DNA of 64,000 nt from positions 272,826-336,825 of the forward strand of contig JBMNLZ010000001.1 in the NCBI GenBank assembly GCA_050953065.1, in the 5' to 3' direction. A model generated the notes under the pieces. That model was not told where the DNA came from. It searched no databases and worked only from the letters and a program-made list of their open reading frames with translations. The DNA is from Bacilli bacterium (lineage in GTDB: Bacteria; Bacillota_I; Bacilli_A; ML615J-28; CAG-698). Below are positions 5,559 through 39,500 of the stretch, piece by piece. Numbering within the stretch: position 1 is the stretch's first letter; the number at the start of each line of letters is the position of its first letter. The position numbers and the translations under genes are program-made.

Positions 5559-6368
5559 TTATTCTTTTAAATTTTGTTCAATAATTTTATCAAAGTTAAT
5601 TTGACTTTCAGTTTTTAATGAAAGGAATTGTTTATATTTATATTTAATATTCAACCACTTTGTTTTTTGAAGAAAATCTTTTTTTGTTAAAGTAGTTGAA
5701 ACAATAACCTTACCTCTTCTTTTATTACTAGTTGGAGTAATAGTTATAATTTCAAATAATGCTTCAGCTGTATCTAATAAAATAGCATTGGGAAAATATT
5801 CCAAGAATTCAGTCTTTAATGCAAACAAAAATGGTGCACTTGGTATAATTAAATCTATTTCTTTTTTTTGAACCAAATGCATTATTTTCTCTACCTCTTT
5901 AAAAGTTTTAGAAGTTTTTACATTGCCATTATTTAAAGTAGATTCAATCTCATCACTTGCTAAACTTGTAAGTTGTGAATGTTTTAAAAACTTTTGATAT
6001 AGATTAGCTTCGATGATAGATTTCCTTGCTAATAATAACATTGATTTATAAGAATATTTAGCATTAACATATTGAATGATATGAGGTGCTAAAAAAACTA
6101 GTTCTTCTCTTTCTTTAAAATCTTCATAACAAAGTTCAAAAATAGTATCGCTAACTATAAAAATCATTTTAGGGTCAAAAGTATTTAAAAACTGGATTTT
6201 TTCATTTACAAAATTTAATATTTCTTCTTTCTTATAACTATCATAAGGGTAATATTCTAAGTCATTAGTATAAACAAAACTTTCATTTGGAAAGTTTTTT
6301 GTTAAAGTTTCTAGAATAAATACTCCTTCAAGCCCCATATCTAAAATACCAATTGGTTTTTTTAACAT
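5559..6368 (-). CDS. Asp/Glu-racemase-superfamily protein, apparently degenerate (both catalytic Cys replaced by Ser)
   Basis: N-terminus KPIGILDMGLEGVFILE aligns to MurI KVIGVFDSGVGGIVVLNE (9368..10129). The CNTA and GCTHF catalytic blocks are replaced by VSDTI and PSAPF. Confidence 0.45.
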   Translation of the reverse strand: MLKKPIGILDMGLEGVFILETLTKNFPNESFVYTNDLEYYPYDSYKKEEILNFVNEKIQFLNTFDPKMIFIVSDTIFELCYEDFKEREELVFLAPHIIQYVNAKYSYKSMLLLARKSIIEANLYQKFLKHSQLTSLASDEIESTLNNGNVKTSKTFKEVEKIMHLVQKKEIDLIIPSAPFLFALKTEFLEYFPNAILLDTAEALFEIITITPTSNKRRGKVIVSTTLTKKDFLQKTKWLNIKYKYKQFLSLKTESQINFDKIIEQNLKE

Positions 6369-10129: not shown

Positions 10130-10274
10130 AAAACACCTTTTTCTTTTATAAATTATAACACTTGTCTCTATTAAGTGCAACTTAAAAATATATTGTTTTT
10201 CCCTTTTTTTCGTTACAGTTTGTTTGACATATATTTTCATTTATATTATAATTAATGTATAAGGGGTGGCTAAA

Positions 10275-11813
10275 ATGGTGATACGAAGTTTCTTTAGAAT
10301 ATTAATAGCAATTTTAGCATTGATGGCTATTGCTGTCTTAGTTTTTATGCCTATAATGACATCATCTACAGATTTAAATACTATACTTATTGATGATAAT
10401 TTGTCTTTAATGAACCTTTTTAATTCACTAAAAGAGGTTTTTGCTAATGATAGCCAAAACTTTTTAAGTACTGTTTGGAACTATAGTTTAGTAATTATGT
10501 ATATCTTAATACCTCCTTTTATACTTTTTACAATCTTCATAAGCGCTTTAAAAGGAGTTAGAAGAAAAAGAAAAAGAGCAAAAGTTATTGGAAAATCTTT
10601 CGTCTTACTTTATTGGATAATGATTGTCTACATCCTAAGAATGACAATTGATCCAAGAACTTTTAATGTAAACTTTGGGCCACTAATTTATTTCATGACA
10701 ATCTTTTTGAAAAGTGACATTGACCAAACTGTAATAATCTTACTTCTTGGTTCAATGGGCTTATTTATATTCTTTGAACTTTTTGCAAGAGCTTTAAATA
10801 GCAGAATAGCATACGCTGCTAGTATGAAAAGTATTGAAAAGAAAAAAGCTGAAAAAACAGTTAACTTAACACCAAATAGTGATTTAGCATTTTCTGGCAA
10901 TCTTAACCCCTCTTTCAACCAGCAAAATATTGATACTTTAATCAACCCTAGTAATACTATTATATATAATAATCATCTAAAAGATGAAGACTCTCAAAGT
11001 ATAGATGAGCCTTTAGCAAAACAAAATACTGTACCTCTACAAAATAGAGTTATATATCAACAAGAATCACCTAAATGGTCTGAATTACCATCATTTAACC
11101 AACAAAAAGATACTCAATCTGATACATATCCTAGTGATTCTACAAAAGATGAAAAATATAGTGGATATTCTAATCAAAAAGAAAGCGGGCAACAACCATC
11201 TTCTTATGAACAATCTGGTCAAGCTGCAAGTTATAAAGAACCTTATGCAAAACAACCTAGTTATGATCAACAATCTCAAACTAATTATAATCAACCAAGA
11301 GATATAAACAGTAATTACGGAGCTTATAATTCGCCATCAGGTAATTATAATCAACCATATAATAGGCCTAATCAGCAATATTACGGACAACAATCTAATA
11401 ACCCTTATTATAATCAACCATATAATAGGCCTAATCAGCAATATTACGGACAACAATCTAATAACCCTTATTATAATCAACCATATAATAGGCCTAATCA
11501 ACAATATTACGGGCAAAATCCATACTATTATCAAAATCAAAATTATCCAAAAACTCCATATGAACAAGCACAAGCTCAAGCTGCTAGCAACTATAACAAT
11601 CCAGCACCATCTGAGCCAGGAATGGATGTAAAGCCAAATCCTACAGTACAAACAAATACAGTAAACTGCCCTGATTGTGGCACTATTGTTATAAAGGGTC
11701 AAAAATTCTGTAGCAACTGCGGAAAATCAATGAAACAAACTTGTCCACAATGTTCAACTGAAGTTACATCTAATAGCAAGTTTTGTAGCAATTGTGGTTT
11801 TAGGTTAAATTAA
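10275..11813 (+). CDS. Membrane protein with N-terminal TM helices, Q/N/Y/P-rich low-complexity tandem-repeat region and two C-terminal zinc-ribbon motifs
   Basis: ATG at 10275 after an AAGGGGTG RBS (the ORF track starts at GTG 10266). Four hydrophobic helices in the first ~180 aa. Three 21-aa repeats NNPYYNQPYNRPNQQYYGQQS. C-terminal CPDCG..CSNCG and CPQCS..CSNCG. Confidence 0.6.
   Translation: MVIRSFFRILIAILALMAIAVLVFMPIMTSSTDLNTILIDDNLSLMNLFNSLKEVFANDSQNFLSTVWNYSLVIMYILIPPFILFTIFISALKGVRRKRKRAKVIGKSFVLLYWIMIVYILRMTIDPRTFNVNFGPLIYFMTIFLKSDIDQTVIILLLGSMGLFIFFELFARALNSRIAYAASMKSIEKKKAEKTVNLTPNSDLAFSGNLNPSFNQQNIDTLINPSNTIIYNNHLKDEDSQSIDEPLAKQNTVPLQNRVIYQQESPKWSELPSFNQQKDTQSDTYPSDSTKDEKYSGYSNQKESGQQPSSYEQSGQAASYKEPYAKQPSYDQQSQTNYNQPRDINSNYGAYNSPSGNYNQPYNRPNQQYYGQQSNNPYYNQPYNRPNQQYYGQQSNNPYYNQPYNRPNQQYYGQNPYYYQNQNYPKTPYEQAQAQAASNYNNPAPSEPGMDVKPNPTVQTNTVNCPDCGTIVIKGQKFCSNCGKSMKQTCPQCSTEVTSNSKFCSNCGFRLN
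11347..11512 (+). repeat. 63-bp direct tandem repeat (~2.6 copies) encoding the Q/N-rich 21-aa repeat
   Basis: tataatcaaccatataataggcctaatcagcaatattacggacaacaatctaataaccctta repeated at 11347, 11410 and 11473, near-identical. Confidence 0.85.
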
Positions 11814-11821
11814 TATTTTAA

Positions 11822-11870
11822 ACAAAAATAAAAAACATTTCAAATGAAATGTTTTTTTATTTATTTTTTT
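11822..11870. terminator. Bidirectional terminator between convergent genes
   Basis: aaaaacatttc-aaatg-gaaatgttttt hairpin flanked by A/T runs. Confidence 0.65.
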
Positions 11871-12310
11871 AACCTTTTTAAGAAGAACAATAAAACCCTT
11901 CTACAAAAGAAAAGTCTTCTCCATAATTTCTCTTTAAATTTATATTTTTTATTAGAATCTACAATAATAGTTTCGTCCTTTTTAATAATTTCTGTAACAT
12001 AGCCTAAAATTTCTTCTTCAAAAACTTTTTCTTTTACTAATAAAGCATCACCACTAACCACATAATGATGCTTTTTCTTTTTCATTATCCTATGAATTAT
12101 AAAATTATTCTTTTTATATAAAATAATATCTCCAGCTTTGAGAAAGTTATTTTTCTTTTCAATAACAATTTGATCTTTTCCATCTAACAAAAACGGAAAC
12201 ATGCTACTTCCTGATACAGTTATTATAATCTTATTATTGTTATTTAATGCTTCAATCATAATTTCTGAAATATCAGTAATTTTAACTTTCTTTATATTAT
12301 TATCTTTCAT
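11861..12310 (-). CDS. S26-family (SipW/archaeal-type-like) signal-peptidase homolog lacking obvious membrane anchor
   Basis: SGSSMFP catalytic-Ser box and a downstream IIHRIMK block like the VHRV His box of ER/archaeal-type SPases. 149 aa, no N-terminal hydrophobic segment. Last gene of the rSAM operon. Confidence 0.55.
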   Translation of the reverse strand: MKDNNIKKVKITDISEIMIEALNNNNKIIITVSGSSMFPFLLDGKDQIVIEKKNNFLKAGDIILYKKNNFIIHRIMKKKKHHYVVSGDALLVKEKVFEEEILGYVTEIIKKDETIIVDSNKKYKFKEKLWRRLFFCRRVLLFFLKRLKK

Positions 12311-12312
12311 AA

Positions 12313-12576
12313 TTATTCTAGAAAATTATTTTCCTTTAAAATTTTTATAAATTCTTTAACATCATTTGCTGCTTCTTCTTTAGAAATTTCATACTCATCA
12401 CATAATATTTTTACTAAATCTTCCTCGCTTTTTTCTTCGTTTAATGATTCCCAAAGAATTTTTGCAGACTCATTTAAAGAAATCATGCCATTAAAGTTAA
12501 CAGCAGCATCTTTAATTGGTATTACAACATACTCACCTACAACTTCTCTTAAAACAAAATCTTTTTTTATTTTCAT
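12313..12576 (-). CDS. PqqD-family peptide chaperone (RiPP recognition element)
   Basis: 87 aa; VLREVVGEYVVIP...NESAKILWESL...EEDLVKIL..YEIS.EEA..DV.EFIKIL profile typical of PqqD/RRE. Confidence 0.7.
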   Translation of the reverse strand: MKIKKDFVLREVVGEYVVIPIKDAAVNFNGMISLNESAKILWESLNEEKSEEDLVKILCDEYEISKEEAANDVKEFIKILKENNFLE

Positions 12577-13427
12577 ATTTTTTCTCCAAATATTTTATTG
12601 TATACTAATTTAACAGCCTCTCTTGAAATATTGCATTCCAAACGATAAAATTTGACTATTTTAGCAAGTCTATTAATCTTATCAATAATCATGTCATTTT
12701 TATTTATATCATCACTTTTTATAAAATTATTAAATATATTTTTCAACATTTCTTTTGAACTTAAATCAAAAATCATATTATGCTTAGCTTGTTCTAAGAA
12801 AACAATTGCTTTTAATGGAACTTTTAAATCAGCATTTAAATTGGTTTTACCACTCCAAGGCGAGCCAATTACATATGCCCTTTCTCCAACAACTTCTATT
12901 ATAGGTTTATCATCATTAATGATAGTAACTCTATCATCAAATTCCATTTTCCAAAGATTAGAATGTGTTGATTTTCCAGTACCCGAAGGTGCAGAAAAGA
13001 TTATTCCAAAATTATCAAAAGCAATAGCAGAGCCATGAACAACTATTAAGTTATTATCTAATAAAAATTCATTAACTAACATTGAAATCAAATTATATTC
13101 TTTTATTTCTAAATCAGCAAGATCTTTTTTGAAATAAGCTCTCACATCTTTATCATTATAAAAATACTCAATCTTTAAAATAGTTTGATTATTTTTATCT
13201 TTAAACACTAATATTTTATCACAAATATCTGTTTTACATAAAATTCTATCATTAAACTCTTTATAAACTTCAAAATCTTTCAACTGTATCTCATCCACAT
13301 ATAAAGTAGAAATTTTATAATGAGCTTTTAAATCATCCAAAACTTGATATTTAGTAAGTCTTTCATTTAATATTTTTGACTCTACATTTAAATCAAAAAT
13401 AATATTCGCTATTTTAATTTTTACCAT
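12573..13427 (-). CDS. HPr-kinase C-terminal-domain-like P-loop protein (HprK-related kinase)
   Basis: VVHGSAIAFDNFGIIFSAPSGTGKST resembles the HprK LVHG...GDSGVGKSE P-loop region. 284 aa. 4-bp overlap with pqqD-like gene, 14-bp overlap with rSAM gene. Confidence 0.55.
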   Translation of the reverse strand: MVKIKIANIIFDLNVESKILNERLTKYQVLDDLKAHYKISTLYVDEIQLKDFEVYKEFNDRILCKTDICDKILVFKDKNNQTILKIEYFYNDKDVRAYFKKDLADLEIKEYNLISMLVNEFLLDNNLIVVHGSAIAFDNFGIIFSAPSGTGKSTHSNLWKMEFDDRVTIINDDKPIIEVVGERAYVIGSPWSGKTNLNADLKVPLKAIVFLEQAKHNMIFDLSSKEMLKNIFNNFIKSDDINKNDMIIDKINRLAKIVKFYRLECNISREAVKLVYNKIFGEKI

Positions 13428-14448
13428 TTTTATTAATAAACCTCATTCGTGCACATTCACGCAAGTAATCACTACATTTTTCTATATTACCTTCAGAATA
13501 TAATTTAGCTGGACAAACATAACAAAAATCATTAAGTTCACATTCTTTACAATCATTACATTTTTTTGATTGTGAAACTGTTTCTTTTAGTTGTAACCAA
13601 GCAAATTCAAAATTATTCTTTAAAATATCAATTCTTGGAAAATCGAATAAACTACAAATAGACATTTTCCCTTCCCAGTTCACAAAAAAAGCACTTTTAC
13701 CAGCAGAACAATTAAAACCATTAACTGTATCAACAAAAGCTTTTTCATAAAAAATATTTGCTTTTTCTTCAAACTTTTTTTGATATTTAAACAATTGTTC
13801 AGCAGATAATCGCTCTACTTCTTTTAAATTAGTACATGTTCTTCTAGGAGCTACATATAAAGAATTTTCTATTGGCAAATTCAAACTTAACATTAAGTTT
13901 AATAAATCATCTAAATTTTCGAAAGTTTCATAAATAGGAATAGTTCTTAAAACAATATTAAGATTAGCCAGTTTAAGTTTTTCTATATTCGCTATTACTC
14001 TGGAAAAGCCTTCTTTATAACCACATATTTTTTCATACATCTTTTCATTATAACCATATATAGTTATTGCAATGTATTCTGGAGGTCTTTTTTTTAATCT
14101 TTCTATTATGTTATTTGTTAGTAAAGTACCATTAGTATATAAAACAATCTTAATCCCTAAGTCATACACCTTTTCATATAAATCCATAAAATCTTTTCTT
14201 AAAAAAATTTCACCACCAGTAAAAACAACAAAAAGCATACCTAAAGATTTAGCCTGATTTATAATATTATACCAGTCATCATTACTTAACTCTTTAGTTT
14301 TATTAAGTGTATGAACATAACACATTTTGCAATTCATATTGCAATTAGCGGTTATTTCAAATTCACCAGCAATAGGAATTTTTTTTACAGCAGCTTTATT
14401 AAGAAGATTAATTTTATACTCGTTATAATAATTCACTTTATACCTCAT
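13414..14448 (-). CDS. Radical SAM enzyme with C-terminal SPASM domain (peptide/protein-modifying maturase family)
   Basis: CNMNCKMCY CxxxCxxC motif near the N-terminus. C-terminal Cys-rich block CNDCKECELNDFCYVCP (SPASM). 344 aa. No fused N-terminal RRE. Confidence 0.8.
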   Translation of the reverse strand: MRYKVNYYNEYKINLLNKAAVKKIPIAGEFEITANCNMNCKMCYVHTLNKTKELSNDDWYNIINQAKSLGMLFVVFTGGEIFLRKDFMDLYEKVYDLGIKIVLYTNGTLLTNNIIERLKKRPPEYIAITIYGYNEKMYEKICGYKEGFSRVIANIEKLKLANLNIVLRTIPIYETFENLDDLLNLMLSLNLPIENSLYVAPRRTCTNLKEVERLSAEQLFKYQKKFEEKANIFYEKAFVDTVNGFNCSAGKSAFFVNWEGKMSICSLFDFPRIDILKNNFEFAWLQLKETVSQSKKCNDCKECELNDFCYVCPAKLYSEGNIEKCSDYLRECARMRFINKNGKN

Positions 14449-14561: not shown

Positions 14562-15725
14562 ATGAAAGTACTAGGCCTAATAATGGAAATTAATCCTCTT
14601 CATAATGGTCATATATATTTTATAAACCAAGCTAAAGCATTAACTAATCCTGATTTTACAATAGTTGTTATGAGTTCTAATTTTACTATGCGTGGTGAAA
14701 CCATGATTATGAATAAATTTGCACGTACTGAACTCCTATTAGCAAATGGAGCTGATTTAGTTTTTGAGTTACCTTTTTTAAGTGCTGTGAATAGTGCTGA
14801 TCTTTTCGGACTAAATGCTATTAGTATTCTTAAAAATCTTCAAACAACACATATTGCGTTTGGAGCAGAACTTAGTGACTTAAGTAAATTAAAAACTATT
14901 TCAAATCTTTTAAAATCTAAAAAATTTAATTCTGAAATTCAAAACTTTTTAAAACTAGGAAACTCCTATGCAAGCAGCGCGCTTAAAACATTAACTTTAT
15001 TAACTAAAGATAAAGAAATAATTACAAATTTTGCATTACCAAATAACACTCTAGCAATTCAATATATAAGCGCTGCTGATAAGTTAAACTATCCATTAGA
15101 TTTTTTTCCTATTAAAAGAATCGGTAATAATTACTACGATAAAAATATTACTAGTAAAATAGCTAGCGCTACTGCTATTAGAGAACTCATCAAAAATAAA
15201 GAACCAATTAATAAATTTGTTCCTAATGATGTTGCAAACTATCCATTTAAAGATTTTGATTTAATAGAAGATAAATTGTTTCACCTTTTAAAATTTACAT
15301 TCGTAAATAAAACATGTGAAGAAATTGCAAATATTTATGGAGTTGAAGAGGGACTTGAAAATAGAATACTATCTGCATTAAAGGAAAGTTCTAATTATTC
15401 TTCTTTTATGGAAAAAGTAATAAGTAAAAGATACAGTTATTTTAGGATTCAAAGAACTATTCTACATATTTTACTTAATACTCCAAAACAATTACAAAAT
15501 AAATCTAACTATTATTTAAGAATGCTAGGTTCTAATGATGCTGGCTTAAAATATATTAGTTCATTACCTAAAGAGGTTAAAAAAAATATAATTACAAGTT
15601 TTAAAAATATACAAAACAATGTAGTAGTTGACTTTGAAATAAAAGCAACTAAACTTTATGACTTATTAACAAACAGTGAAAATATCATTGAAGAATACAA
15701 GATTCCAATTAAGAAAGGAGAATAA
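14562..15725 (+). CDS. tmcAL: tRNA(Met) cytidine acetate ligase (YlbM/TmcAL family nucleotidyltransferase)
   Basis: MKVLGLIMEINPLHNGHIYFINQAK closely parallels B. subtilis YlbM [20 protein letters not shown]; HxGH motif; 387 aa. Confidence 0.75.
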   Translation: MKVLGLIMEINPLHNGHIYFINQAKALTNPDFTIVVMSSNFTMRGETMIMNKFARTELLLANGADLVFELPFLSAVNSADLFGLNAISILKNLQTTHIAFGAELSDLSKLKTISNLLKSKKFNSEIQNFLKLGNSYASSALKTLTLLTKDKEIITNFALPNNTLAIQYISAADKLNYPLDFFPIKRIGNNYYDKNITSKIASATAIRELIKNKEPINKFVPNDVANYPFKDFDLIEDKLFHLLKFTFVNKTCEEIANIYGVEEGLENRILSALKESSNYSSFMEKVISKRYSYFRIQRTILHILLNTPKQLQNKSNYYLRMLGSNDAGLKYISSLPKEVKKNIITSFKNIQNNVVVDFEIKATKLYDLLTNSENIIEEYKIPIKKGE

Positions 15726-17068: not shown

Positions 17069-17500
17069 TTATATTCCTTTCTTAAATTTATTTGAATCTA
17101 AATATCCTTGTAAAATAATAGTCGCAGCTAATTTATCAACATTTTTTTTTCTTTTTTGTCTACTCATATCAGCACTTAACATTGTCCTATTAGCAATTAC
17201 AGATGTTAATCTTTCATCAATTAAATGAACTTTTAAGTTTGTTTCTGCTTCTAGTACTCCTTTAAACTCTAAGATATAATCACATTGAAAACCTGTTGAG
17301 CCATCCATGTTTTTTGGAAAACCCAAAACTATTTCTTTAATTTGATGTTCCTTAATTAGTTCTTTAACAAATCCTAAGGCTTGCTTTAAATCTTTTTCAT
17401 CGATTCTATAAGTTCCAATTGGATTAGCAATAACTCCTAACATATCACTAATTGCAACTCCTAAAGTTTTTGTTCCTAGATCCAATCCTAAAATTTTCAT
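17069..17500 (-). CDS. ruvX: Holliday-junction-resolvase-like putative pre-16S rRNA nuclease RuvX/YqgF
   Basis: MKILGLDLGTKTLGVAISD N-terminus; 143 aa; 4-bp overlap with alaS. Confidence 0.85.
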   Translation of the reverse strand: MKILGLDLGTKTLGVAISDMLGVIANPIGTYRIDEKDLKQALGFVKELIKEHQIKEIVLGFPKNMDGSTGFQCDYILEFKGVLEAETNLKVHLIDERLTSVIANRTMLSADMSRQKRKKNVDKLAATIILQGYLDSNKFKKGI

Positions 17501-20202
17501 ATTTTTTCCTCAATTTCTTTCTTAACTTCTTCTAATGCCTGTTTTACCATATTAACATTTTTACCACCTGCTTGAGCAAAATCAGGACGTCCACCACCAT
17601 TGCCACCACAAATAATAGCAGCTTTTTTAACAAGTAATCCTGCATTTAAAGAAGAAACTTTATTTTTGCAAATAAATATAACTTTGTCTTCTACTATACT
17701 TCCAACAAAAACAACACTTTCTTTTAAATAATCACTTAATCTATCCACTAAATCTTTTAATACTTCAATATTAACATCTTTTACATCAAAAATACATACT
17801 TTTTTATTATTTATTTCTTCTACATATTCTAAATACTTATCAATTGACTCACTATTTTTTTCTTGTAGTGCTTTTTGATATTTTTTTGAAATCTCTTTAC
17901 TCTCATCTCGTAAAGCATTCAGATAATTTCTCATAGCAATTATTCTACTATAGCTTTGTTCATCACTTTTTACTTTAGATAAATCAAATTTTAATTCAAT
18001 ACCATTTAATTTTGCTTCTTCAACTAAATTTTCACCTTTTTTAAGTAAATCTTCAATTTCACTATTAATATTATAAAGTCTTTCATTCAACTCTTTTTCT
18101 ATTTGGCTACTAGTAGCTGCTTCAATTCTAAATATCCCAGATCCCTTAGCTTCAATTGAAGTAATTGCAAATCTTTCTATTTCTTTAGTATTTGAAACAT
18201 GAGTCCCGCCACATAATTCTTTACTAAATACAGTATCAACTACTCTTACAATGTCACCATACTTTTCACCAAAAACTGCTTGAACACCTTCTTTTTTCGC
18301 TGCTTCTAAAGACATTTCTTTTACTAAAACATCACTTGATTTTAAAATTTCTTTATTAACAAGTTTTTCAACTTCAAGAATTTGATTTTCATTTGGTAAT
18401 TCAAAATTATTAAAATCAAATCTTAGATTACTAGCATTAACATTTGAACCATGTTGATAAACATGTGTACCTATAATTTGTCTTAATGATTCATTTAATA
18501 AGTGGGTAGCAGTATGATTTTTAGCTATTTTTTCTCGATATTTTTTATCTATTTTTAAAATAACTTGCTGTCCAACAGTTAATACTCCATCATTAATTTC
18601 AACTAAAGATGCATGTTGCATATTAGGTAATTTTATAGTATCAGTTACTTCATATGTATTAGTATTTGAAATTACTAGTCCTTTATCGCCAACTTGCCCA
18701 CCTGATTCTGCATAAAAAACTGTTGGTGAAAATAATACCAAAGCACTTTCATCTGCTTTACTAACTGATTTTCCATTTACAAAAATAGCAACTACCTTAG
18801 ATTCACATTCAAAATTATCATAACCAATAAATTCTGTTTCTTTATGAAAATTCAAAATTTCTTCATTTTGGACATTCATTGATTGATTATCACTTCTAGC
18901 CATTCTAGCTCTTTCTTTTTGTTTCTCTAATTCTTCTTTGAATCCTTTCAAATCGACTTCAAAATTATATTCACTAGCTAACTCTACAGTTAATTCAATT
19001 GGAAAACCAAATGTATCATATAGTAAAAACGCTGTTTCTTTAGCAATAACTTTATTTTTATCTTTTGAATGATTATTTATATATTCCAATAGTTTTTTTT
19101 CACCTAACTCAAGCGTTAATAAAAACTTTTCTTCTTCTTGTTTAATTATTTTTGTTACATTTTCTTCGTTCAAAGCTAAATCACTATAAAAAACTTTCAT
19201 ATTTTCAACTACAACATTAACAAGTTCATATAAAAAAGCTTTTTTAATTCCTAAATTTTTTCCAAATCTAACCGCTCTTCTTAACAATCTTCTTAAAACA
19301 TATCCACGGCCTTCATTAGAAAGAGTCGCCCCATCACTAACTGCAAAAACTACACTTCTAACATGATCAGCTATAACCTTAAAAGCCATTTGACCTGTAT
19401 ATTTAACTGAAGAAATTTCTTCAGTTTTTCTAATTATTGGCATAAATAAATCTGTATCATAATTAGTTTCTACTTCTTGTAAGACGCAAGCCATTCTTTC
19501 AAGCCCCATACCTGTATCAATATTTTTACTAGGTAATTCAGGATATTCACTTCTTTCTTTTCCAGGAATAGAATTGTATTGACTAAATACTATATTCCAT
19601 ATTTCAATATATCTTTCATTTTCTATATCTTTTTCAATTAACTCTTTACCTAGTTTTTCAGGATCATATTTTTCACCACGATCATAAAAAATTTCCGTAC
19701 AAGGTCCACAAGGTCCTTCTCCAATTTCCCAAAAATTTTGACTTAATCTAATAATATGATTTGGAGAAACTCCTAATTCAACCCATCTTTCAAAAGAGGC
19801 ATCATCTGTTGGATATATTGTAAAATACAATTTATTTATATCAAAAGCAAAATATTTAGAAGATGTTAGAATTTCAATAGCAAATTCTAATGCTTCTTCT
19901 CTAAAATAATCTCCAACTGAAAAATTACCAAGCATCTCAAAAAAAGTATGATGCCTAGCCGTTTTTCCAACATTTTCAATATCATTGGTTCTAATTGATT
20001 TTTGGGCATTAACCATTCTTCTATTATTTGGAATTTCACGTCCATCAAAAAACTTTTTTAAGGGTGCAACTCCAGCATTAATCCATAATAAAGTGGGATC
20101 ATTATGTGGAACTAAAGAAGCACTTGGTATTACTTCATGATTTTTACTGGCAAAAAAATCTAACCACATTTGTCTAATTTCATAACTCATTAATTTTTTC
20201 AT
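17497..20202 (-). CDS. alaS: Alanine--tRNA ligase
   Basis: ~900 aa with class-II AlaS blocks and the C-terminal GGGRPDFAQAGG. I chose the second ATG (20202). The first ATG (20214) lies inside the GGAGG RBS in ATGGAGGAAAACATG. Confidence 0.95.
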   Translation of the reverse strand: MKKLMSYEIRQMWLDFFASKNHEVIPSASLVPHNDPTLLWINAGVAPLKKFFDGREIPNNRRMVNAQKSIRTNDIENVGKTARHHTFFEMLGNFSVGDYFREEALEFAIEILTSSKYFAFDINKLYFTIYPTDDASFERWVELGVSPNHIIRLSQNFWEIGEGPCGPCTEIFYDRGEKYDPEKLGKELIEKDIENERYIEIWNIVFSQYNSIPGKERSEYPELPSKNIDTGMGLERMACVLQEVETNYDTDLFMPIIRKTEEISSVKYTGQMAFKVIADHVRSVVFAVSDGATLSNEGRGYVLRRLLRRAVRFGKNLGIKKAFLYELVNVVVENMKVFYSDLALNEENVTKIIKQEEEKFLLTLELGEKKLLEYINNHSKDKNKVIAKETAFLLYDTFGFPIELTVELASEYNFEVDLKGFKEELEKQKERARMARSDNQSMNVQNEEILNFHKETEFIGYDNFECESKVVAIFVNGKSVSKADESALVLFSPTVFYAESGGQVGDKGLVISNTNTYEVTDTIKLPNMQHASLVEINDGVLTVGQQVILKIDKKYREKIAKNHTATHLLNESLRQIIGTHVYQHGSNVNASNLRFDFNNFELPNENQILEVEKLVNKEILKSSDVLVKEMSLEAAKKEGVQAVFGEKYGDIVRVVDTVFSKELCGGTHVSNTKEIERFAITSIEAKGSGIFRIEAATSSQIEKELNERLYNINSEIEDLLKKGENLVEEAKLNGIELKFDLSKVKSDEQSYSRIIAMRNYLNALRDESKEISKKYQKALQEKNSESIDKYLEYVEEINNKKVCIFDVKDVNIEVLKDLVDRLSDYLKESVVFVGSIVEDKVIFICKNKVSSLNAGLLVKKAAIICGGNGGGRPDFAQAGGKNVNMVKQALEEVKKEIEEKI

Positions 20203-20214
20203 GTTTTCCTCCAT

Positions 20215-20425
20215 TTAAAAAATTCCTATATTAAAAAATATAGGAACGAAATTCTCGCGGTACCATCCTATTTCATAGTAAACTATGCAACTCAATTAAA
20301 TTTAACGCATTTTTACGTGAATTTTTTAAAAATTCATACTCCAAAGTAGCTTTCAATGTTATTGTTTAAGATTTTTCACCAACCAATCTCTCTCTTTTAA
20401 AAACAAATTAACATTTACTCATCTT
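20215..20425 (-). promoter_or_regulatory. T-box riboswitch leader for alaS (Ala specifier)
   Basis: The minus-strand RNA carries the conserved T-box core GGATGGTACCGCG (complement of 20256..20268). A terminator hairpin at 20223..20246 is followed by a U run, then the RBS. The putative specifier region has AAAGCUACU with GCU (Ala), and an AGAGA box lies upstream. Confidence 0.75.
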
Positions 20426-20438
20426 TATCACAGTATTA

Positions 20439-22103
20439 TTAAATTATATTTAAAACCGGAATTACTATCGGTTTCTTTTTAAGTCCCGAATATATTTCTT
20501 TTGATATATCATCAGCTAATAAATTAGTTAATGATTTAATATCAATTCTTGCTTTACGCAAATATGTTTTAATTCTTTTTTCAATAATTAAAGATATACG
20601 TGTAAATATAGTTTCAGTATCAGTTGTAATACCTCTTGAAACAATTTTTGGTTTAGATATTAATTCTCTACTCAAATCATCAACTACAATCGTAACTATA
20701 ATAACTCCATTTTGAGATAATAATTCTCTATCTCTAATAACAACTTCATTTATATCGCCAATTATAGAACCATCAATAAGTACATCACCAACTGAAATTT
20801 GTTGTTTTGTAGGTTGTAAATTTCCATTTTGGAAAGTTATTAATTCACCATTTTCTAAAATTAATACTTTATTTTCATTGTATCCAACTTCTAAAGCTAT
20901 ATTTTTTTGAACATATTGATGACGAAATTCTCCTACAATCGGAATTATATATTTCGGATTAAGCATACCATATAACAATTTTAAATCTTCACTATCAGCA
21001 TGAGAACTTTTTAGCATTTGTTTTTTAATGATTGTTACATGTTTACTTTTTTGGCTCAATAAATCAACAGCTTTACTCGCTAATTTTTCAGTTCCAGGAA
21101 CTACTTTGTTCATTATAACAACAGTATCTTCTTGATTAATTTTAATTAGTCTATCATATCCTTTACACATTCTTTGAAGCATATAAAAAGGTTCATGTCT
21201 AATCCCTGTTACTATAACTACCAAATCATCAAAATCATTTTGATTTTTATCAGTAATATATTTTAAATTGATTAATTTATCTTCTGGAATTTTTAAATAA
21301 TCGTTATTCATTGCTATATTAATATGTTTTTGAACTTTTCTACCTATAATGGCAACTCTACGATTATTTTTAACACTAATATCAATTATCTTTTGAATTC
21401 TATCCAAATCACTAGAAAAGGCTGAAAAAATCACCCTTTTTGATTTTTTTAAGATTTCAGAAACTGTATGCAGTAATGGATAATCATTATGAACTCTATC
21501 AATATTATTAACACCTAAACTACCAGCACACAAAACTAAAACATCATCGTTTGCTATCTCAGTTATTTTATGCATAGAAGTTCTATATCTTTTATCTTGG
21601 TGTGCATCAAAGTTAAAATTAGGCACATAAACTAATGATCCATCTTGCGTTTTAATGTTAATACCAACACATTCAGGAATACTATGACTAACATTAAAAA
21701 ATGAAACTATAATAGAACCAAATTTTAATTCTTTATCTTCATTAATCCTATATAATCTAAATTTTGAAATATCCATTTGGGCTTCAGTTAACAAATCCTC
21801 TAATACACACATTGTAAAATGTGTAGCAAATACTCCAACATCTAGAGTCTTTAAAAGTTCAGGAATTGCTCCAACATGATCATCATGTCCATGAGTTAAA
21901 AAAATTCCTTGAACTCTTTCTTTGTTTTCAATTAAATAGGTAATATTTGGTATAACAGCATCTATGCCTAATAATTCTACACTCGGATACTTTAAGCCGC
22001 CATCTAAAACAAATATCTTATCATCAATTTCAACAAGATACATATTTTTGCCGTTTTCTCCTAGTCCTCCTAAAGCTCCAAATTTAATACTACTCATATA
22101 CAA
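20439..22103 (-). CDS. rnj: Ribonuclease J
   Basis: IKFGALGGLGENGKNMY..HGHDDH metallo-beta-lactamase/beta-CASP blocks; 554 aa. Confidence 0.9.
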   Translation of the reverse strand: MYMSSIKFGALGGLGENGKNMYLVEIDDKIFVLDGGLKYPSVELLGIDAVIPNITYLIENKERVQGIFLTHGHDDHVGAIPELLKTLDVGVFATHFTMCVLEDLLTEAQMDISKFRLYRINEDKELKFGSIIVSFFNVSHSIPECVGINIKTQDGSLVYVPNFNFDAHQDKRYRTSMHKITEIANDDVLVLCAGSLGVNNIDRVHNDYPLLHTVSEILKKSKRVIFSAFSSDLDRIQKIIDISVKNNRRVAIIGRKVQKHINIAMNNDYLKIPEDKLINLKYITDKNQNDFDDLVVIVTGIRHEPFYMLQRMCKGYDRLIKINQEDTVVIMNKVVPGTEKLASKAVDLLSQKSKHVTIIKKQMLKSSHADSEDLKLLYGMLNPKYIIPIVGEFRHQYVQKNIALEVGYNENKVLILENGELITFQNGNLQPTKQQISVGDVLIDGSIIGDINEVVIRDRELLSQNGVIIVTIVVDDLSRELISKPKIVSRGITTDTETIFTRISLIIEKRIKTYLRKARIDIKSLTNLLADDISKEIYSGLKKKPIVIPVLNII

Positions 22104-29815: not shown

Positions 29816-31552
29816 CTAAGAGATTTTAAAGCTTTTGAACTTTTTAACTTTACTCTTTTGATTCAGTTGATTGTATAGAGAATTTTTATTTTTCTCTAGT
29901 TCTCCAATTTCGCCGTATTCAGAAATTTTTCCATTTTCTAATATAATAAGTTTATCACATTGATTTAATTGTGATATGTTATTAGATAAAATTATAAATA
30001 TCTTATTTTTTAATTTTAATACTTCATCTATTATTTTTTCATTTTCTGGTAAGTCACAAGCATTATCTAAAAGTATAATTTTACTATCTTTATAAAGACC
30101 GTTTGCTAAAACTATTCTTTGTTTAATAATTGGATCTAAATTTTCATCAATTACAGTATCACCAGCATCTGGCAAGTTTAATACATAATCTTTTAAACCA
30201 CTTCTATTTAACGCATCATTATATTTATAATCATCAAATTCATAAGGGAAAATGATATTATTAATAATTGATGTTCTGAAGATTTCACTTTCAGTTGTAA
30301 CTGAAGCCATAATATCTCTTAAATAAAATGTATTAATTTTAGTAATATCACAATTGTTAATCAAAATAGAACCACTTCTTGGAACAGCTAATTTAGTAAG
30401 CAAATTAAATATCGTTGTTTTTCCACTTAATGAATCACCATAGATACCTAGTTTTTGGCCTTTTTGTATTTCAAAATTAATATTTTGAAGTTTGAAATCC
30501 TTATTTAAATAATGAAAATACACATCTTTAAATTTAATACTATAAATTTCATCAAGTGATTCGATATTTTCAAATTTACTTTCAGATTTAAAGGCGAAGA
30601 TTTCATCTAAATTTGTAATAGATGTAGCAATTACAGCTGGTGAGATTCTTGTAGTAAGTAAATTTTTAAATGAAGTAAAAACTTTTGGAATTAAAAATAT
30701 ACATAAAACCAAACTACCAATTGTTAATTTTAATCCCACTGGATCTGCAATTACAATCCAAACACCTATTGATATATTGATTGCTAAAACAAGCCCTACA
30801 AACAAATCACTTATATACTGTTTATTAATCTTATAAAACAAACTATTTTGTCTTTTCATTTTAGCATTTTTTTCATTCCAACTTTTAAAGTTCTCCTCTT
30901 CAAATTTAATACAATTTCTTAACTTTATAGTTTTAACCTTTTCTAAAGTTTCATTCATCAAAAATTGCCCTTGATTCATAACTTCTTTTACTTTAGGTTG
31001 ACTTCTTTTATAAAGTTTTTGAAAAGCTTTTATTAAAGCATAATAAACTGGCAATGTACAAAAAACAACTAAAGCTATTAAAGGATTAGAAATCAGTAAT
31101 GCTATTAATAAGAAAATTAATGATATAGAATTACTAAAGAAATTCAAAACATTGTTAGTAATATAAGTATCACCAATTTTACTAGCATCGCTGTTCATTC
31201 TTTTAATAATTTCTTTAGAAGTCATTTTTTCAATTTCAAACAATTCAGCTCTTAATACTGTTGAATATAAATTTTCTCTTAAATATTGAGTTACATAATT
31301 TCCTAAAATTATATTATTATTTTGATTAACACTATTTAAAATAAAAGATATAACACTAGACAAAGAAAGCATTATGATCCAAAAAACTAATAAATCAAAA
31401 TCTTTATTTGGAATAACATTATCAATAATAACTTTTATTATCCATAAACTAAAAATTAAAAGCAAAGATGATAAGATAACCATTAAAACAAGAAATATTA
31501 TTGAACGAAGTTTATTGCTAAACGCTTGCTTAATAAGATTTTTAGTATTCAT
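29816..31552 (-). CDS. ABC exporter half-transporter (TMD-NBD fusion) with degenerate ATPase catalytic motifs
   Basis: 578 aa, six N-terminal TM helices. Walker A GDSLSGKTT is intact. The signature is LDPIIKQR instead of LSGGQ, Walker B is ILLDNA instead of DE, the H-loop His is replaced (LSNNIS), and no Q-loop Gln is evident. Confidence 0.75.
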   Translation of the reverse strand: MNTKNLIKQAFSNKLRSIIFLVLMVILSSLLLIFSLWIIKVIIDNVIPNKDFDLLVFWIIMLSLSSVISFILNSVNQNNNIILGNYVTQYLRENLYSTVLRAELFEIEKMTSKEIIKRMNSDASKIGDTYITNNVLNFFSNSISLIFLLIALLISNPLIALVVFCTLPVYYALIKAFQKLYKRSQPKVKEVMNQGQFLMNETLEKVKTIKLRNCIKFEEENFKSWNEKNAKMKRQNSLFYKINKQYISDLFVGLVLAINISIGVWIVIADPVGLKLTIGSLVLCIFLIPKVFTSFKNLLTTRISPAVIATSITNLDEIFAFKSESKFENIESLDEIYSIKFKDVYFHYLNKDFKLQNINFEIQKGQKLGIYGDSLSGKTTIFNLLTKLAVPRSGSILINNCDITKINTFYLRDIMASVTTESEIFRTSIINNIIFPYEFDDYKYNDALNRSGLKDYVLNLPDAGDTVIDENLDPIIKQRIVLANGLYKDSKIILLDNACDLPENEKIIDEVLKLKNKIFIILSNNISQLNQCDKLIILENGKISEYGEIGELEKNKNSLYNQLNQKSKVKKFKSFKIS

Positions 31553-31682: not shown

Positions 31683-31846
31683 AGAAGTCTTCAGGGTGAG
31701 GTGTAATTCCTAACCGGCGGTAAAGTCCGCGAGCTGTAAAGCAGATTTGGTGTAATTCCAAAACCGACAGTAAAGTCTGGATGAAAGAAGATTTTATGCT
31801 TTTTTTGCATGCTTTCACCCTAGAATTTCTAGGGTGTTTTTATATT
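31683..31846 (+). promoter_or_regulatory. FMN riboswitch (RFN element) with intrinsic terminator expression platform
   Basis: CAGGGTGAGGTGTAATTCCTAACCGGCGGTAAAGTCCGCGAGC ... ACCGACAGTAAAGTCTGGATGAAAGAAG matches the RFN consensus (compare B. subtilis ribD leader GGGTGAAATTCCCGACCGGCGGTAGTAAAGCAC...GCCGACAGTGAAAGTCTGGATGGGAGAAG). The terminator is caccctagaa/ttctagggtg plus U5 at 31815..31842. Confidence 0.85.
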
Positions 31847-31859
31847 CAAGGAGGATTAT

Positions 31860-32975
31860 ATGATTTTAAAAATCGATTGGGCCATTTTTTTTAATAAAAA
31901 CTTATCCAGTATAATCGCAGGAATTGGACTTTTTCTAGTTTTAATTGCTGTAATTTTAAATTTTTTTCAAAACAAATGTTCTAAAAAATCAAAAATTTCT
32001 TTAATAACTACCATTGTAATAGGAACTCTTCTAGTAATTACTGGTATTGTTACAAATAAAAAATGGGCAGAAATCTTAGCATATTTGGGAGTAATTTTAT
32101 CAATCTTAGGATTTATAGCTTTAATGGTAAATATTTTTAAAACTACAAGAGAAAAAATAAAAATTATCCTATCTATGGTTGTTTTATTGTTAGGTCTTTT
32201 TTCGTTAATTCTTGGTTTATTTAATATTGAAAAATACTTGCTTGTTTTAAGTGTCTTCGGTGTTCTTCTATTAATTTCATGCTTAATTAGTTATTTTATA
32301 ATATACGATGAAAGAAAAGAAATCTCAAAATTTCAAACTAAAAATATAGCTGTGGTTGGTATTTTAGGAGCTTTAGGTGTTATATCTATGCTAATAGGTA
32401 TTCCAATTATGCCTGTTCTGGGTTTTGATTTTCTAAAACTAGATTTTTGTTTAGTTGTTCTAGTATGTGTTTTATTACTTTTTGATTTTAAAACTGCTGT
32501 TGCTGTTGCTTTTGTTTCAAATTTAATAGATGGATTATTAAAACCTGGTGTAATTTATTTATTAGACCAAGGTATAAACTTTGTTGCTAGCACTCTATTT
32601 TTAATACCAATTTACTTCTTAGTTGCATACACTAAAAAAAGAATCAATTCAGAAATAACACATAAAAACATTCTAACAATTTTATTTTGTGCAATTTCAA
32701 CCATATCTACTACTATTCTTATGATATTTATTAATTATTTTGTTGTAATACCTATTTATGATAATGCTACAGGTAACGCTATTTCAACTGGATTGTTGCA
32801 AATAAATAACAATAAATTCCTTGCTACAATCATGATTTTTGGTACTTTTAATATAATAAAATGGACTTGTGTATCTATTGTTATTTCCCTTATTTATAAT
32901 AGATTTATTAAATTTAAAAAATCTATTTGTTATGAAGAGTTATTAGCTGAAGAACTTGAAAAAAGTATTCTTTAA
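31860..32975 (+). CDS. ribU: Riboflavin ECF-transporter S-component (RibU-like) fused to an N-terminal ~170-aa multi-TM extension
   Basis: The C-terminal ~200 aa (NIAVVGILGALGV...FLKLDFCLVVLVCVLLLF...) resemble RibU/YpaA (YLKIDFSDVPAIIAILIYG). It is preceded by ~5 extra hydrophobic helices. Strong AAGGAGG RBS at 31849. Downstream of the FMN riboswitch. Confidence 0.6.
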   Translation: MILKIDWAIFFNKNLSSIIAGIGLFLVLIAVILNFFQNKCSKKSKISLITTIVIGTLLVITGIVTNKKWAEILAYLGVILSILGFIALMVNIFKTTREKIKIILSMVVLLLGLFSLILGLFNIEKYLLVLSVFGVLLLISCLISYFIIYDERKEISKFQTKNIAVVGILGALGVISMLIGIPIMPVLGFDFLKLDFCLVVLVCVLLLFDFKTAVAVAFVSNLIDGLLKPGVIYLLDQGINFVASTLFLIPIYFLVAYTKKRINSEITHKNILTILFCAISTISTTILMIFINYFVVIPIYDNATGNAISTGLLQINNNKFLATIMIFGTFNIIKWTCVSIVISLIYNRFIKFKKSICYEELLAEELEKSIL

Positions 32976-36574: not shown

Positions 36575-39500
36575 TTACCCAGTATATCCCCAAACTACCG
36601 GTCTATTATCAGGATTCCAATTAGCATTCCAAGTAGTTGGTCGATCTGTTGCTTCAGCATAAATTGTTAAATTTGTACAACCAGCAAAAACTCCACTAAA
36701 CATGTTGGTAACATTTGCTGGAATTATAATGCTTGCTAAACCTGTACATCCAGAAAATGCATAATCACCTATAGTTGTAATATTTGTTGAAATTGTAATG
36801 CTTGTTAGAATTGTACAATTAGCAAAAGCACTTGAAGCTATAGTTGTAACAGGATATGTTTCTATTGTAGAAGGTATTGTTACAGCACCGGAAACACCTG
36901 TATAACCAGTTATTACTACACTATAAGTAGAATCTATTAGAGAAACTCCATACTCTATTCCACTAGCAGTAACATCATTACTTACATACCCCCAAACAAT
37001 TGGTCTATTGTCTACATTCCAAAGACTCTCCCAGCCTGCTGGTTTACTTTCTGCTTTAGCATATATCGTTAAACTACTACATCCGTAAAAAGCACGATAA
37101 CCTATACTTGTAACACTTGTTGGAATTGTTATGCTTGCAAGTTTTGAACAGTTATAAAAGACATGCTGACCAATACTTGTAACACTTGTAGGGATTGTGA
37201 TACTTGTAAGATTTGCACATTCACTAAATGACGAACTGTTTATTGTTGTAACAGTTGAAGGAATTATAACGCTTGTTAGGCTATTACAAAATCTAAAGCA
37301 ATCAAAGCCTATACTTAGTAATCCTTCTGTCATTATTACGCTTGATAAACTTGAACAAGATTCAAAAGCAGAACGACCAATACTTGTGATGCTTGAAGGA
37401 ATTGTGATACTTATTAAATTAGTACAATTAGCAAAAGCCCAATTACCTATCGTTTTAACAGAATAGTTTTCTATTATACTTGGTATTTCCACTTCAGTAG
37501 AAACGCCTTCATAAGTAGTTATTATTACACTATATGTAGAATTAACTTTAGAAATTCCATATTCTAATCCACCAGCAGTAACTCCATGACTAATATATCC
37601 CCAGACAACTGCATTGTGTCCCGAATCCCAAGATTCATGCCAATTTGTTGGTTTTTCTTCTGCTACAACATAAATAGGCATACCAGGACAATCCCAAAAA
37701 ACAGAATGATCCATATGTGTTACACTATTTGGAATTATTACCCTTTCTAGTCTTGTACATCCTTTGAATGCACCATAGTCGATTGTAGTAACAGTATTTG
37801 GAATTGTAACAGTTGTTATGAAATAACAACTTTCAAATGCAGTTTCACCTATGCTTAATAATCCTTCTGGAAGTGGCATGCTTGTTAAACCACTACAACC
37901 TGCAAATGCTCTTCTACCTATACTTGTAATACTTGGCATTGTAATACTTGTTAAACCACAGTTAAAGAAAGTGTAGTCTTCTATACTTGTAACTCCAGTT
38001 GGAATTGTGACACCTGTTAAACTACAACAATTATAAAAAGCATATGAACCTATACTAGTAACTGTATCAGGAATTGTTACTCCTGTTATATTACAATTTC
38101 TAAAAGCAGAATTAGTTATGCTTTTAACATTAAATCCAGCAATTGTTTCTGGTATTAAAACTGTAGTCGCCCCACCTACATAACCATATATTGCTACACT
38201 GTAGTTAGAATTTATTAATATAATTCCATATTTTAAACCATTATTAGTAACTCCACTAGCAACATAACCAAAAACAACTGGTCTATTATCTACATTCCAA
38301 TTTATATGCCATCCTAATGTTTTAGCATTTGATCTAGCAAAAATTGTTAAACTACTACAACCTTTAAATGCATTTGCTCCTATTGTAACAACACTTGAAG
38401 GAATTGTAATGCTTGTTAAAGTGTCACAATCTTCAAAAGCAGATGCAGCTATACTAGTAATTGCTTTACCTAAATATTTTTCTGCAATATATACATCTAA
38501 AGATTCCCCAGCATAACCAGTAACCTCATATGTATCATCTTCTTTTAATGTGAAAGCTAGTCCTTCTGTTGAAGCATTTTCTTCCCATTTAGCAAATAGT
38601 GTATAACTCGCTAAAACTCCCATTGTATAACTTGCTTCATCTAAATATTCTACACTTCCACCTTGAGTTGTACTCCAACCAATAAAGCTATAACCTGGTT
38701 TAACAAATGTATTTTCAGGAAGGTAGATAGAATCATCTGTTTTTACCAACACATTACTCATTTGACCTAAGCCGCTATTAGCATTAAATGATAAAGTATT
38801 TTGATTAGCTTCCCATTTAGCAAAAAGCGTATAATTTTCTAAAACTCCCATCGTATATTTTGCTTCATCAAGATATTCTACATTACCATTTTCAGTTGTA
38901 GCCCAACCTATAAAAGTATAACCAGCTTTAGTAAATGTATTTTTTGGAAGATAGATATAATTATCTGTTTTAATTTGCACACTATTCATTTCACCTGTTC
39001 CAGTATTAGCATTAAACGATAATGTGTTTTGTTTAGCTTCCCATTTAGCAAAAAGCGTATAATTATCTAAAACACTAATTGTATAATTAGCTTCATCAAG
39101 ATATTCTACATTTCCAGTTTCAGTTGTAGCCCAACCTATAAATGTATAACCAGCTTTAGTAAATGTATTTTTTGGAAGTTTTATAGTTTGTTTTACATCT
39201 ATTGTAATACCTCCCATTTCTCCTGTTCCACCATTTGAATCAAAAGAAATTACATATCCTTGCCTTCTACTAATTACTGCTTTATATATAGCACTTTCAC
39301 TACCCTTTGTAACTTTGATATATGCAGTATTATCCCCGACTGCAAGTTCTATTGATTTTGAAACAATTTTATTTGTTGCTTCTATATCACTGTATAATTC
39401 CCAAGTTGCTAAAGGATGAACTATAATATAATTAATAAATGAGAATGTTGTAGTAAAATGTGAGACTTCAAAAGATAAATTTGTTCCATCAATTTCAAAT

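Follow-up and report, generated by a model that had tools for sequence, protein, structure and literature searches.

What substrate does a set of peptide-modifying enzymes act on when no peptide gene lies beside it? The question is raised by a four-gene operon of a Bacilli bacterium (assembly GCA_050953065.1, contig JBMNLZ010000001.1), found in a stretch of 64,000 nucleotides (positions 272,826 to 336,825, forward strand) that was analysed at its full length and is referred to here as the window. The operon encodes a radical S-adenosylmethionine (rSAM) enzyme, a P-loop protein resembling HPr kinase, a stand-alone PqqD-type recognition element (RRE) such as is known from peptides that are made by ribosomes and then modified post-translationally (RiPPs), and a SipW-type serine peptidase. 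In the explanation that we favour, and regard as moderately probable, this is a RiPP enzyme core, an rSAM-containing relative of the linear polyphosphorylated peptide (LPP) systems of Bacillota (Popov et al., Nat Commun 2026, PMC13381572) and of paeninodin-type lasso peptide systems, and its substrate is likely a peptide with a YxxP leader that is encoded elsewhere. The four open reading frames (ORFs) were all found where a sequence-only reading of the window had placed them:

13414..14448, minus strand: gene for an rSAM/SPASM-type enzyme, 344 amino acids as the longest ORF
12573..13427, minus strand: ScmC-family (PF27840) P-loop protein, LppK-like putative peptide serine kinase, 284 amino acids
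12313..12576, minus strand: stand-alone PqqD-fold RRE of the lasso-B1/LppB type, 87 amino acids
11861..12310, minus strand: SipW/archaeal-type (SpI-like, S26B) serine peptidase, LppS-like putative leader peptidase, 149 amino acids

The kinase gene shares 14 nt with the rSAM gene and 4 nt with the RRE gene, and a gap of 2 nt separates the RRE gene from the peptidase gene.

In the favoured explanation the stand-alone RRE would bind a short precursor through the [Y/W]xKP motif of its leader, and the HprK/ScmC-type kinase would phosphorylate a serine of the core, either the one about 19 residues past the leader tyrosine (in the Bacilli-type precursors described below) or a C-terminal one (in those of Clostridia type). 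The rSAM/SPASM enzyme would cross-link a conserved core cysteine, with a thioether as the likeliest bond if SkfB is a guide, and the anchor-less SipW-type peptidase would cleave off the leader upon its presentation by the RRE. The lineage represented by the window would have lost, or never had, an adjacent precursor, an NTP_transf_5 gene and a dedicated exporter. We infer all of the chemical steps, as well as the location of the precursor, from related loci and characterised homologues.

Enzymes of the operon

The rSAM protein matches PF04055 (E = 1.1e-24) and has the motif C36x3C40x2C43, with further cysteines spaced as C247-x12-G-x4-C265, C300x2C303x5C309x2C312 and C325/C332. An alignment of 34 rSAM homologues shows no variation at C36, C40, C43, C247, C265, C303, C309 or C312, and 90% conservation at C300; as judged from these residues, the protein holds a complete SPASM-type cysteine complement. 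The CX2CX5CX2C spacing is unlike the canonical CX3C, and the Pfam SPASM model (PF13186) gives no score at 0.01 or better. The rSAM motif begins at residue 36 and there is no fused RRE, this function being assigned to a separate gene. The solved structures closest to the rSAM profile are those of the thioether-forming SkfB (1.2e-34) and then SuiB, PqqE, anSME and CteB, although all NCBIfam equivalog scores of the protein are far under their cut-offs. We note that the annotated ATG has no ribosome-binding site, whereas an in-frame GTG at 14436 is preceded by GAGG 7 nt upstream; the database copy of the protein (P0001) has 340 amino acids and matches this GTG, which is probably the true start.

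The 284-residue protein is matched by the NCBIfam models ScmC (TIGR04249; 1.4e-7) and HprK_rel_B (7e-4), both below the curated cut-offs, and its database homologues carry PF27840 (ScmC family), a search for which returned at least 7,600 matches. H131-G-S133, the P-loop G151-K-S-T154 and N171-D-D-K-P175 are among its invariant residues. An AlphaFold2 (AF2) model has a mean predicted local distance difference test (pLDDT) score of 93.5, and a Foldseek search of the PDB with it retrieves phosphoenolpyruvate carboxykinase (PEPCK; 2e-6) and HprK/P (6e-6), each with a probability of 1.0. The modelled structure points to a P-loop protein of the PEPCK/HprK fold, and we class it as a putative peptide serine kinase.

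The 87-residue protein matches PF05402 (8.8e-18), and its best NCBIfam match, again below the curated cut-off, is lasso_PqqD_Bac. A profile of cassette-linked RREs searched against the PDB finds TbiB1 (1e-9), TfuB1 (9e-8), PbaB1 (1.4e-7) and LppB (9x8z; 5.8e-7), but true PqqD at only 0.03; LppB is not specifically the closest of these structures. The sequence-only reading had seen the logic of the pyrroloquinoline quinone (PQQ) and mycofactocin pathways in this gene pairing, and the profile matches redirect that comparison towards the lasso B1 proteins and LppB. The residues of LppB that contact the leader Tyr and Pro are D70 and F74, and D72 and F76 of the window RRE appear to be aligned with them, so the substrate of the window RRE may well be of the classical YxxP-leader type.

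The 149-residue protein matches PF00717 (4.6e-6), and its best NCBIfam match is sigpep_I_arch (TIGR02228; 2.6e-9), with a score of 37.1 against a cut-off of 51.85. G-S-S36-M, H73-R74 and G87-D88 are invariant among close homologues, and 26 cassette-linked peptidase homologues retain the corresponding G-x-S-M-x-P, LHR and GD motifs. Unlike the housekeeping type I signal peptidase SipW, which its sub-threshold TIGR02228 score also sets it apart from, the window protein has no N-terminal membrane anchor: its N-terminus is hydrophilic and predicted to be helical, with no hydrophobic segment, and its C-terminus forms a basic amphipathic helix. A phmmer search of PDB sequences gave no match. We regard the protein as a putative anchor-less SipW-type Ser/His/Asp leader peptidase, similar to LppS. 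The family assignments in the sequence-only reading have therefore stood up for all four proteins: an rSAM/SPASM enzyme with no fused RRE, an HPr-kinase-like P-loop protein, a stand-alone PqqD-type RRE, and a SipW-like S26 peptidase with Ser and His boxes but no anchor.

Related loci and their precursors

A scan of genome contigs found at least 556 rSAM relatives (at least 600 stretches), and gene neighbourhoods were analysed for the 80 best-scoring ones. The gene-context counts given here are for 86 non-duplicate related loci, with gene families assigned using hidden Markov models (HMMs) built in this analysis. Among the matches listed, the nearest rSAM relatives are from a Bacilli metagenome-assembled genome (40% identity) and from Izemoplasmatales metagenome-assembled genomes (38% and 33%), and the remainder are mostly from Oscillospiraceae, Lachnospiraceae, Ruminococcus and related Clostridia, many of them of gut and rumen origin. 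The same gene set recurs, in varying order, in both metagenomic and genomic loci. A ScmC gene adjoins the rSAM gene in 73 of the 86 and a PqqD gene in 68; a peptidase (S24) is present in 25, an NTP_transf_5 gene in 22 and an ABC exporter in 25. Two rSAM genes are present at L040 and L069, and two complete cassettes at L022, L064 and L080.

The sequence-only reading had described an orphan set with no precursor gene, and had suggested looking for orthologous cassettes that carry one. Such cassettes are common. A precursor leader was detected at 52 of the 86 loci, and one HMM iteration adds more, so the absence of a precursor is not a property of the cassette family, whose members carry a Cys-containing precursor with a YxKP leader beside the enzymes. 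The consensus MKKxYxKPxhxxExFxLxxxIA is common to 41 distinct leaders, which are followed by Cys-containing cores. NCBIfam and Pfam hold no model for these peptides, and the only similarity found there is a weak one to the StsA sactipeptide leader (E = 0.03). The Bacilli-type precursors are 34–53 amino acids in total, with a short acidic core, one conserved Cys, and a conserved Ser 19 residues past the leader Tyr. The Clostridia-type precursors have Cys-rich cores of 50–110 amino acids that mostly end in ...CYHxP....F(N/T)S; among them are those of L023, L027, L031, L042, L045–L055 and others, of 75–110 amino acids with 4–6 Cys and a C-terminal Ser. Some relatives have long 'precursors' of 80–150 amino acids, and about 15% of the full-length related loci have no detectable leader match (L024, L035, L053, L063, L081, L084 and L085).

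A metagenome scan with the short precursors identified seven further loci. At L100, L104 and L106 the gene order is rSAM-kinase-RRE-peptidase-(NTP_transf_5)-precursor. A different arrangement is seen at L101, a 73.5-kb contig with an orphan precursor at 5980–6120, MEKKFNNSNEIYEKPIVEIIEFTIEENIALSGNFGSGAICTEGLEE, and none of the four cassette genes (rSAM, kinase, RRE, peptidase) within 6 kb of it. Precursor and cassette can thus apparently be unlinked, since this precursor has no cassette within that distance. The L101 orphan precursor is the mirror image of the precursor-less cassette in the window.

Downstream of the precursor in every Bacilli-type locus is a gene for a large secreted protein, immediately adjacent except at L104. 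The N-terminal segment of about 340 amino acids is conserved (25–52% identity) and is also present at the cassette-less L101, which suggests a functional link between the precursor peptide and the secreted protein. The genes for these large secreted proteins are located as follows:

L001, 10628–12820
L010, 4209–6539
L100, 2748–3764
L101, 6126–8582
L102, 882–1961
L103, 1620–1991
L104, 8754–9638
L105, 1182–2126
L106, 6141–7175

In L081 (4787–6982), by our own ORF calling and HMM assignment, the peptidase domain is at the N-terminus of a 731-residue ORF that includes an ABC transporter, an arrangement that fits a role in leader cleavage plus export. The L081 ORF resembles the peptidase-containing bacteriocin exporters, but its serine peptidase is of a different fold. 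A variant cluster in L003 (6415–13586 and 15180–17083) has a 125-residue precursor with a WEKP leader, a Metallophos phosphatase, NTP_transf_5, an ABC exporter and a peptidase; it adjoins IS21-type transposase genes and a resolvase, and a second ScmC gene and a 130-residue leader-like ORF are nearby.

The copy in the window

The gaps around the operon, of 47 bp and 113 bp, contain no ORF of 14 or more amino acids, and the claim that no precursor ORF fits in the operon or the 113-bp region upstream of it can be extended to the whole 64 kb. The small-ORF mining that had been recommended for the whole genome was run on the window and gave no precursor: in a relaxed scan no intergenic small ORF showed either a [YW]xxP motif or a tail with Cys, and no window protein has the leader motif near its N-terminus. 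Regular-expression searches and two leader HMMs, applied to the window, all of its gaps and the loci of close relatives, found nothing better than E = 0.36. Three of the window gaps are occupied by a T-box, a flavin mononucleotide (FMN) riboswitch and a tRNA.

Despite this, the cassette is maintained. Several relatives share the order alaS-ruvX-DUF1292-Mrp-HIGH_NTase1-[rSAM-kinase-RRE-peptidase]-zinc-ribbon protein-murI-fumarase, with amino acid identities to close relatives of 75% for the rSAM enzyme and 64–77% for the peptidase. Intact copies of all four genes, catalytic motifs included, are found in the window as well as in three or more diverged relatives. In comparisons with close relatives (synonymous divergence, dS, 0.5–1.6) the ratio of nonsynonymous to synonymous substitution rates (dN/dS) is 0.15 for the rSAM gene, 0.26 for the kinase, 0.07–0.08 for the RRE, which is the lowest of the four, and 0.15–0.18 for the peptidase, whereas the neighbouring housekeeping genes have values of 0.08–0.14. 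By these ratios all four window genes are under purifying selection, and because the genes are intact and their dN/dS is like that of the flanking housekeeping genes, the cassette is maintained by selection rather than decaying. With no adjacent precursor and yet purifying selection, the operon most likely acts on a YxxP-leader peptide whose gene is elsewhere in the genome.

At L091 (1555–3359), from a relative with 78% identity, two ORFs stand in place of the rSAM gene and another two in place of the kinase gene; with an assembly coverage of only about 2x, sequencing error and pseudogenisation are indistinguishable there.

Alternative explanations

Several observations weigh against a RiPP core acting on a YxxP-leader peptide encoded elsewhere. 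The best E-values of two leader HMMs, built from the related-locus precursors and searched against a six-frame translation of the 64-kb window, are 0.86–1.6, and the stretches fetched for close relatives (about 16 kb at most) have no leader match. The window has no NTP_transf_5 homologue, no homologue of the conserved domain of the precursor-linked secreted protein, and no dedicated exporter; there is only a generic ABC exporter gene at 29816–31552, 15 kb away, which scores E = 1e-33 as against 1e-115 or better for the cassette-linked exporters. All NCBIfam matches of the four window proteins are below the curated cut-offs, and the AF2 model of the peptidase, made from seven close homologues, is poor (pLDDT 46.5). 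The predicted thioether chemistry has only two sources, the similarity to SkfB and the conserved Cys in the relatives' precursors, and peptide phosphorylation by this branch of ScmC proteins is predicted from the LPP and lasso kinases. The published LPP study includes no rSAM-linked clusters.

The lack of a linked precursor would also be accounted for if the enzymes had been recruited to a non-canonical substrate, whether a full-length protein, such as a surface or membrane protein, or a peptide that lacks the family leader. In keeping with this, the cassette persists under purifying selection in a conserved housekeeping neighbourhood in several relatives with no precursor, exporter or NTP-transferase, and the long 'precursors' of some relatives would imply that substrate size is flexible. 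However, conservation among the four genes is highest for the RRE, and the Asp and Phe through which LppB contacts the leader Tyr and Pro are apparently kept in it; this speaks for a classical YxxP leader, and no window protein displays that motif near its N-terminus. One candidate, the zinc-ribbon membrane protein encoded convergently with the operon, is linked to the cassette by synteny alone and in close relatives only, and we have rejected it as the substrate for now. On this evidence we consider recruitment to a non-canonical substrate unlikely. A more specific version, rather unlikely in our estimation, is that a RiPP enzyme set has been domesticated in a low-GC Bacilli lineage and performs radical cross-linking, phosphorylation and trimming at the protein level, for instance on a full-length cellular or surface protein. 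The operon might otherwise be the remnant of a larger cluster (rSAM-kinase-RRE-peptidase-NTP_transf_5-precursor-secreted protein) whose distal part was deleted, so that the product is no longer made. The nearest precursor-bearing relatives (L010, L104 and L106) do share the gene order of the operon and continue with NTP_transf_5, the precursor and the large secreted protein, the window operon ends at a terminator directly past the peptidase gene, and the seemingly split genes of L091, at their low coverage, would be in line with decay. Against this are the four intact ORFs with their catalytic motifs in the window and the diverged relatives, and the housekeeping-like dN/dS of 0.07–0.26, where decay would give values of about 1 and frameshifts; we therefore find a remnant fairly improbable.

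A precursor within the window could also have escaped the leader profiles and ORF scans through divergence or small size, and the related full-length loci with no leader match suggest that divergent precursors do occur in the family. This is hard to reconcile with the two gaps beside the operon, neither of which contains an ORF of 14 or more amino acids, with the RNA elements that fill other gaps, and with the lack of [YW]xxP motifs and Cys-containing tails among the small ORFs in the gaps, and we judge it very unlikely. We give hardly any weight to the least probable explanation, in which a redox-cofactor pathway like those for PQQ and mycofactocin acts on a tiny cofactor precursor. It draws on weak, sub-threshold similarities of the rSAM enzyme to PqqE (82 bits) and MftC (66.5 bits) and of the RRE to PqqD (30 bits), but the equivalog cut-offs of 381, 265 and 46 bits respectively are far above these scores, the RRE profile prefers lasso B1/LppB over PqqD by more than four orders of magnitude, and neither PqqA/B/C nor MftA/B/D–F genes, nor any others of these pathways, flank the operon. 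Moreover, the precursors of the relatives contain Cys, have lasso-like leaders and are linked to exporters.

A RiPP enzyme core with an unlinked substrate would have a practical consequence. The window copy indicates that such an enzyme set can persist for long under purifying selection without a linked precursor, exporter or NTP-transferase, and loci of this kind could escape standard genome-mining tools that depend on finding a precursor close by.

Flanking genes, expression signals and other features of the window

Two candidate expression signals border the operon:

~11826–11862, both strands: AT-rich hairpin with flanking A and T runs, between convergent stop codons
14489..14461, minus strand: promoter-like CTGACA-17 nt-(TG)TAATAT between the divergent genes (113-bp gap), recognised by consensus alone

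The hairpin folds well on both strands, with energies of -10.9 kcal/mol (plus) and -12.8 kcal/mol (minus) and z-scores of -3.5 and -4.1, and it is probably a bidirectional intrinsic terminator, as had been suggested. A consensus terminator scan, which demands at least three G-C pairs, missed it. The TGACAA/TAATAT promoter that had been proposed upstream of the rSAM gene is present as a site, but promoter-type matches in this AT-rich DNA are no commoner than expected by chance (22 found, 23.7 expected).

The operon is the sole minus-strand unit between two plus-strand genes, 14562..15725 (HIGH_NTase1 family) and 10266..11813. Both had been taken for housekeeping genes; the downstream one, for a 515-residue membrane protein rich in Q, N, Y and P with two C-terminal zinc ribbons, is not obviously of that kind. 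Its Q/N/Y/P-rich region is encoded by a 63-bp tandem repeat (11344–11520; 2.8 copies, 97% matches). The cassette has a GC content of 0.22–0.25, and a signal of horizontal transfer was considered and rejected, as this is only slightly under the window mean of 0.283 and inside the window range.

Elsewhere in the window there is a T-box leader (126.5 bits) at 20239–20440 on the minus strand, upstream of alaS (17497–20214), and an FMN riboswitch (120.7 bits) at 31683–31796 on the plus strand, upstream of a gene for a 371-residue membrane protein (31860–32975). Three very large proteins of 1882, 2825 and 1103 amino acids, with lipoprotein-like N-termini, are encoded in a row on the minus strand (36575–42223, 42358–50835 and 51634–54945), where GC rises to as much as 0.37, above the rest of the window. 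The giant surface proteins of the window were considered as homologues of the precursor-linked secreted protein and rejected, as the matches are to Big_2-type domains only and the conserved N-terminal 340 residues are unmatched.

Comparison with known systems

The pairing of a ScmC-family protein with an rSAM/SPASM enzyme is shared with the SynChlorMet cassette (TIGR04249/04250/04251), which was defined in silico. However, the window proteins score 31.2 bits for ScmC (cut-off 125), 72.8 for ScmE (cut-off 400) and 51.1 for ScmF (cut-off 400), there is one rSAM gene and not two, and the taxa differ. A search of the available literature library for the SynChlorMet cassette found no paper, and searches there on ScmC and HPr kinase or SipW with radical SAM found no description of an rSAM-containing system. 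The defining features of SynChlorMet, PQQ/mycofactocin and lasso systems were each found to be lacking, and identity with any of them was rejected.

The rSAM enzyme resembles sactipeptide and ranthipeptide maturases (SkfB, CteB and AlbA-type) in its CX3CX2C core and its C-terminal auxiliary-cluster cysteines, and the relatives' precursors have conserved Cys. It departs from them in that the RRE is separate, the rSAM gene is coupled to those for a kinase and a SipW-type peptidase, and no precursor is adjacent; its NCBIfam scores are also far below the SkfB and StsB cut-offs.

Among the tailoring enzymes of Firmicutes lasso peptides are HprK-type kinases and nucleotidyltransferases (PMC7533575), and the cassette family shares with the paeninodin/pseudomycoidin-type lasso systems a B1-type RRE, the [Y/W]xxP leader logic, an HprK-like protein (in the cassette a putative Ser kinase), an NTP-transferase and an ABC exporter. 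The lasso kinases modify a C-terminal Ser, and the Clostridia-type precursors of the rSAM family likewise end in Ser. The earlier analogy with lasso kinases and the reading of the operon as RiPP machinery are both supported. Unlike lasso clusters (A, B1, B2, C, D), the operon has neither an Asn-synthetase-like cyclase C nor a transglutaminase-like B2, and an rSAM/SPASM enzyme and a SpI-like peptidase are present instead.

The LPP systems are among the closest known to the operon. The family has been characterised experimentally, with a gene set LppA/K/B/S/D/N, and its clusters encode a SpI-like (SipW-type) peptidase LppS, the RRE LppB, the HprK-like kinase LppK, the NTP_transf_5 protein LppN, an MsbA-like pump and a precursor with a YxxP leader (PMC13381572). 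Sixty-seven LPP kinases were detected with TIGR04249 (ScmC), the same model that matches the window kinase; LppK polyphosphorylates core Ser3, 18 residues past the leader Tyr, and LppS, with a triad of S29/H68/D93, cuts after T-1 only when the leader is presented by LppB (PMC13381572). The conserved Ser of the Bacilli-type precursors thus has nearly the same spacing from the leader Tyr as LPP Ser3. The window has a discrete lasso-B1-like RRE and an anchor-less SipW-type peptidase with a triad of the same type (S36/H73/D88), and the relatives of its cassette have NTP_transf_5, an MsbA-like ABC exporter, sometimes a Metallophos phosphatase, and a YxxP-leader precursor. The statement in the sequence-only reading that no characterised system has this combination of genes thus no longer holds, because three of the four window genes (putative kinase, discrete RRE and SipW-type peptidase) correspond to the LPP core, and only the rSAM gene is additional.

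There are also clear departures from the LPP systems. By the defining features of the class, the LPP product is linear, with phosphorylation as the sole core modification and no cyclase or cross-linking enzyme (PMC13381572), whereas the window has a translationally coupled rSAM/SPASM gene that overlaps the kinase gene, and none is mentioned in the LPP paper or its supplements. The leader in the cassette relatives is YxKPxhxxExFxLxxxIA and that of LPP is YxxPxVLxHQxIxFETxxS, the precursor cores of the relatives carry a conserved Cys, and the window copy has no adjacent precursor, NTP_transf_5 gene or MsbA-like exporter. The comparison ties the recently described LPP class to a larger and apparently undescribed sister family, in which the kinase/RRE/SipW-peptidase module is joined by an rSAM/SPASM enzyme and Cys-containing precursors, and for which the analysis supplies concrete precursor sequences and a leader consensus. 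The predicted products of this sister family, both cross-linked and phosphorylated where those of LPP are phosphorylated only, would represent a new chemotype.

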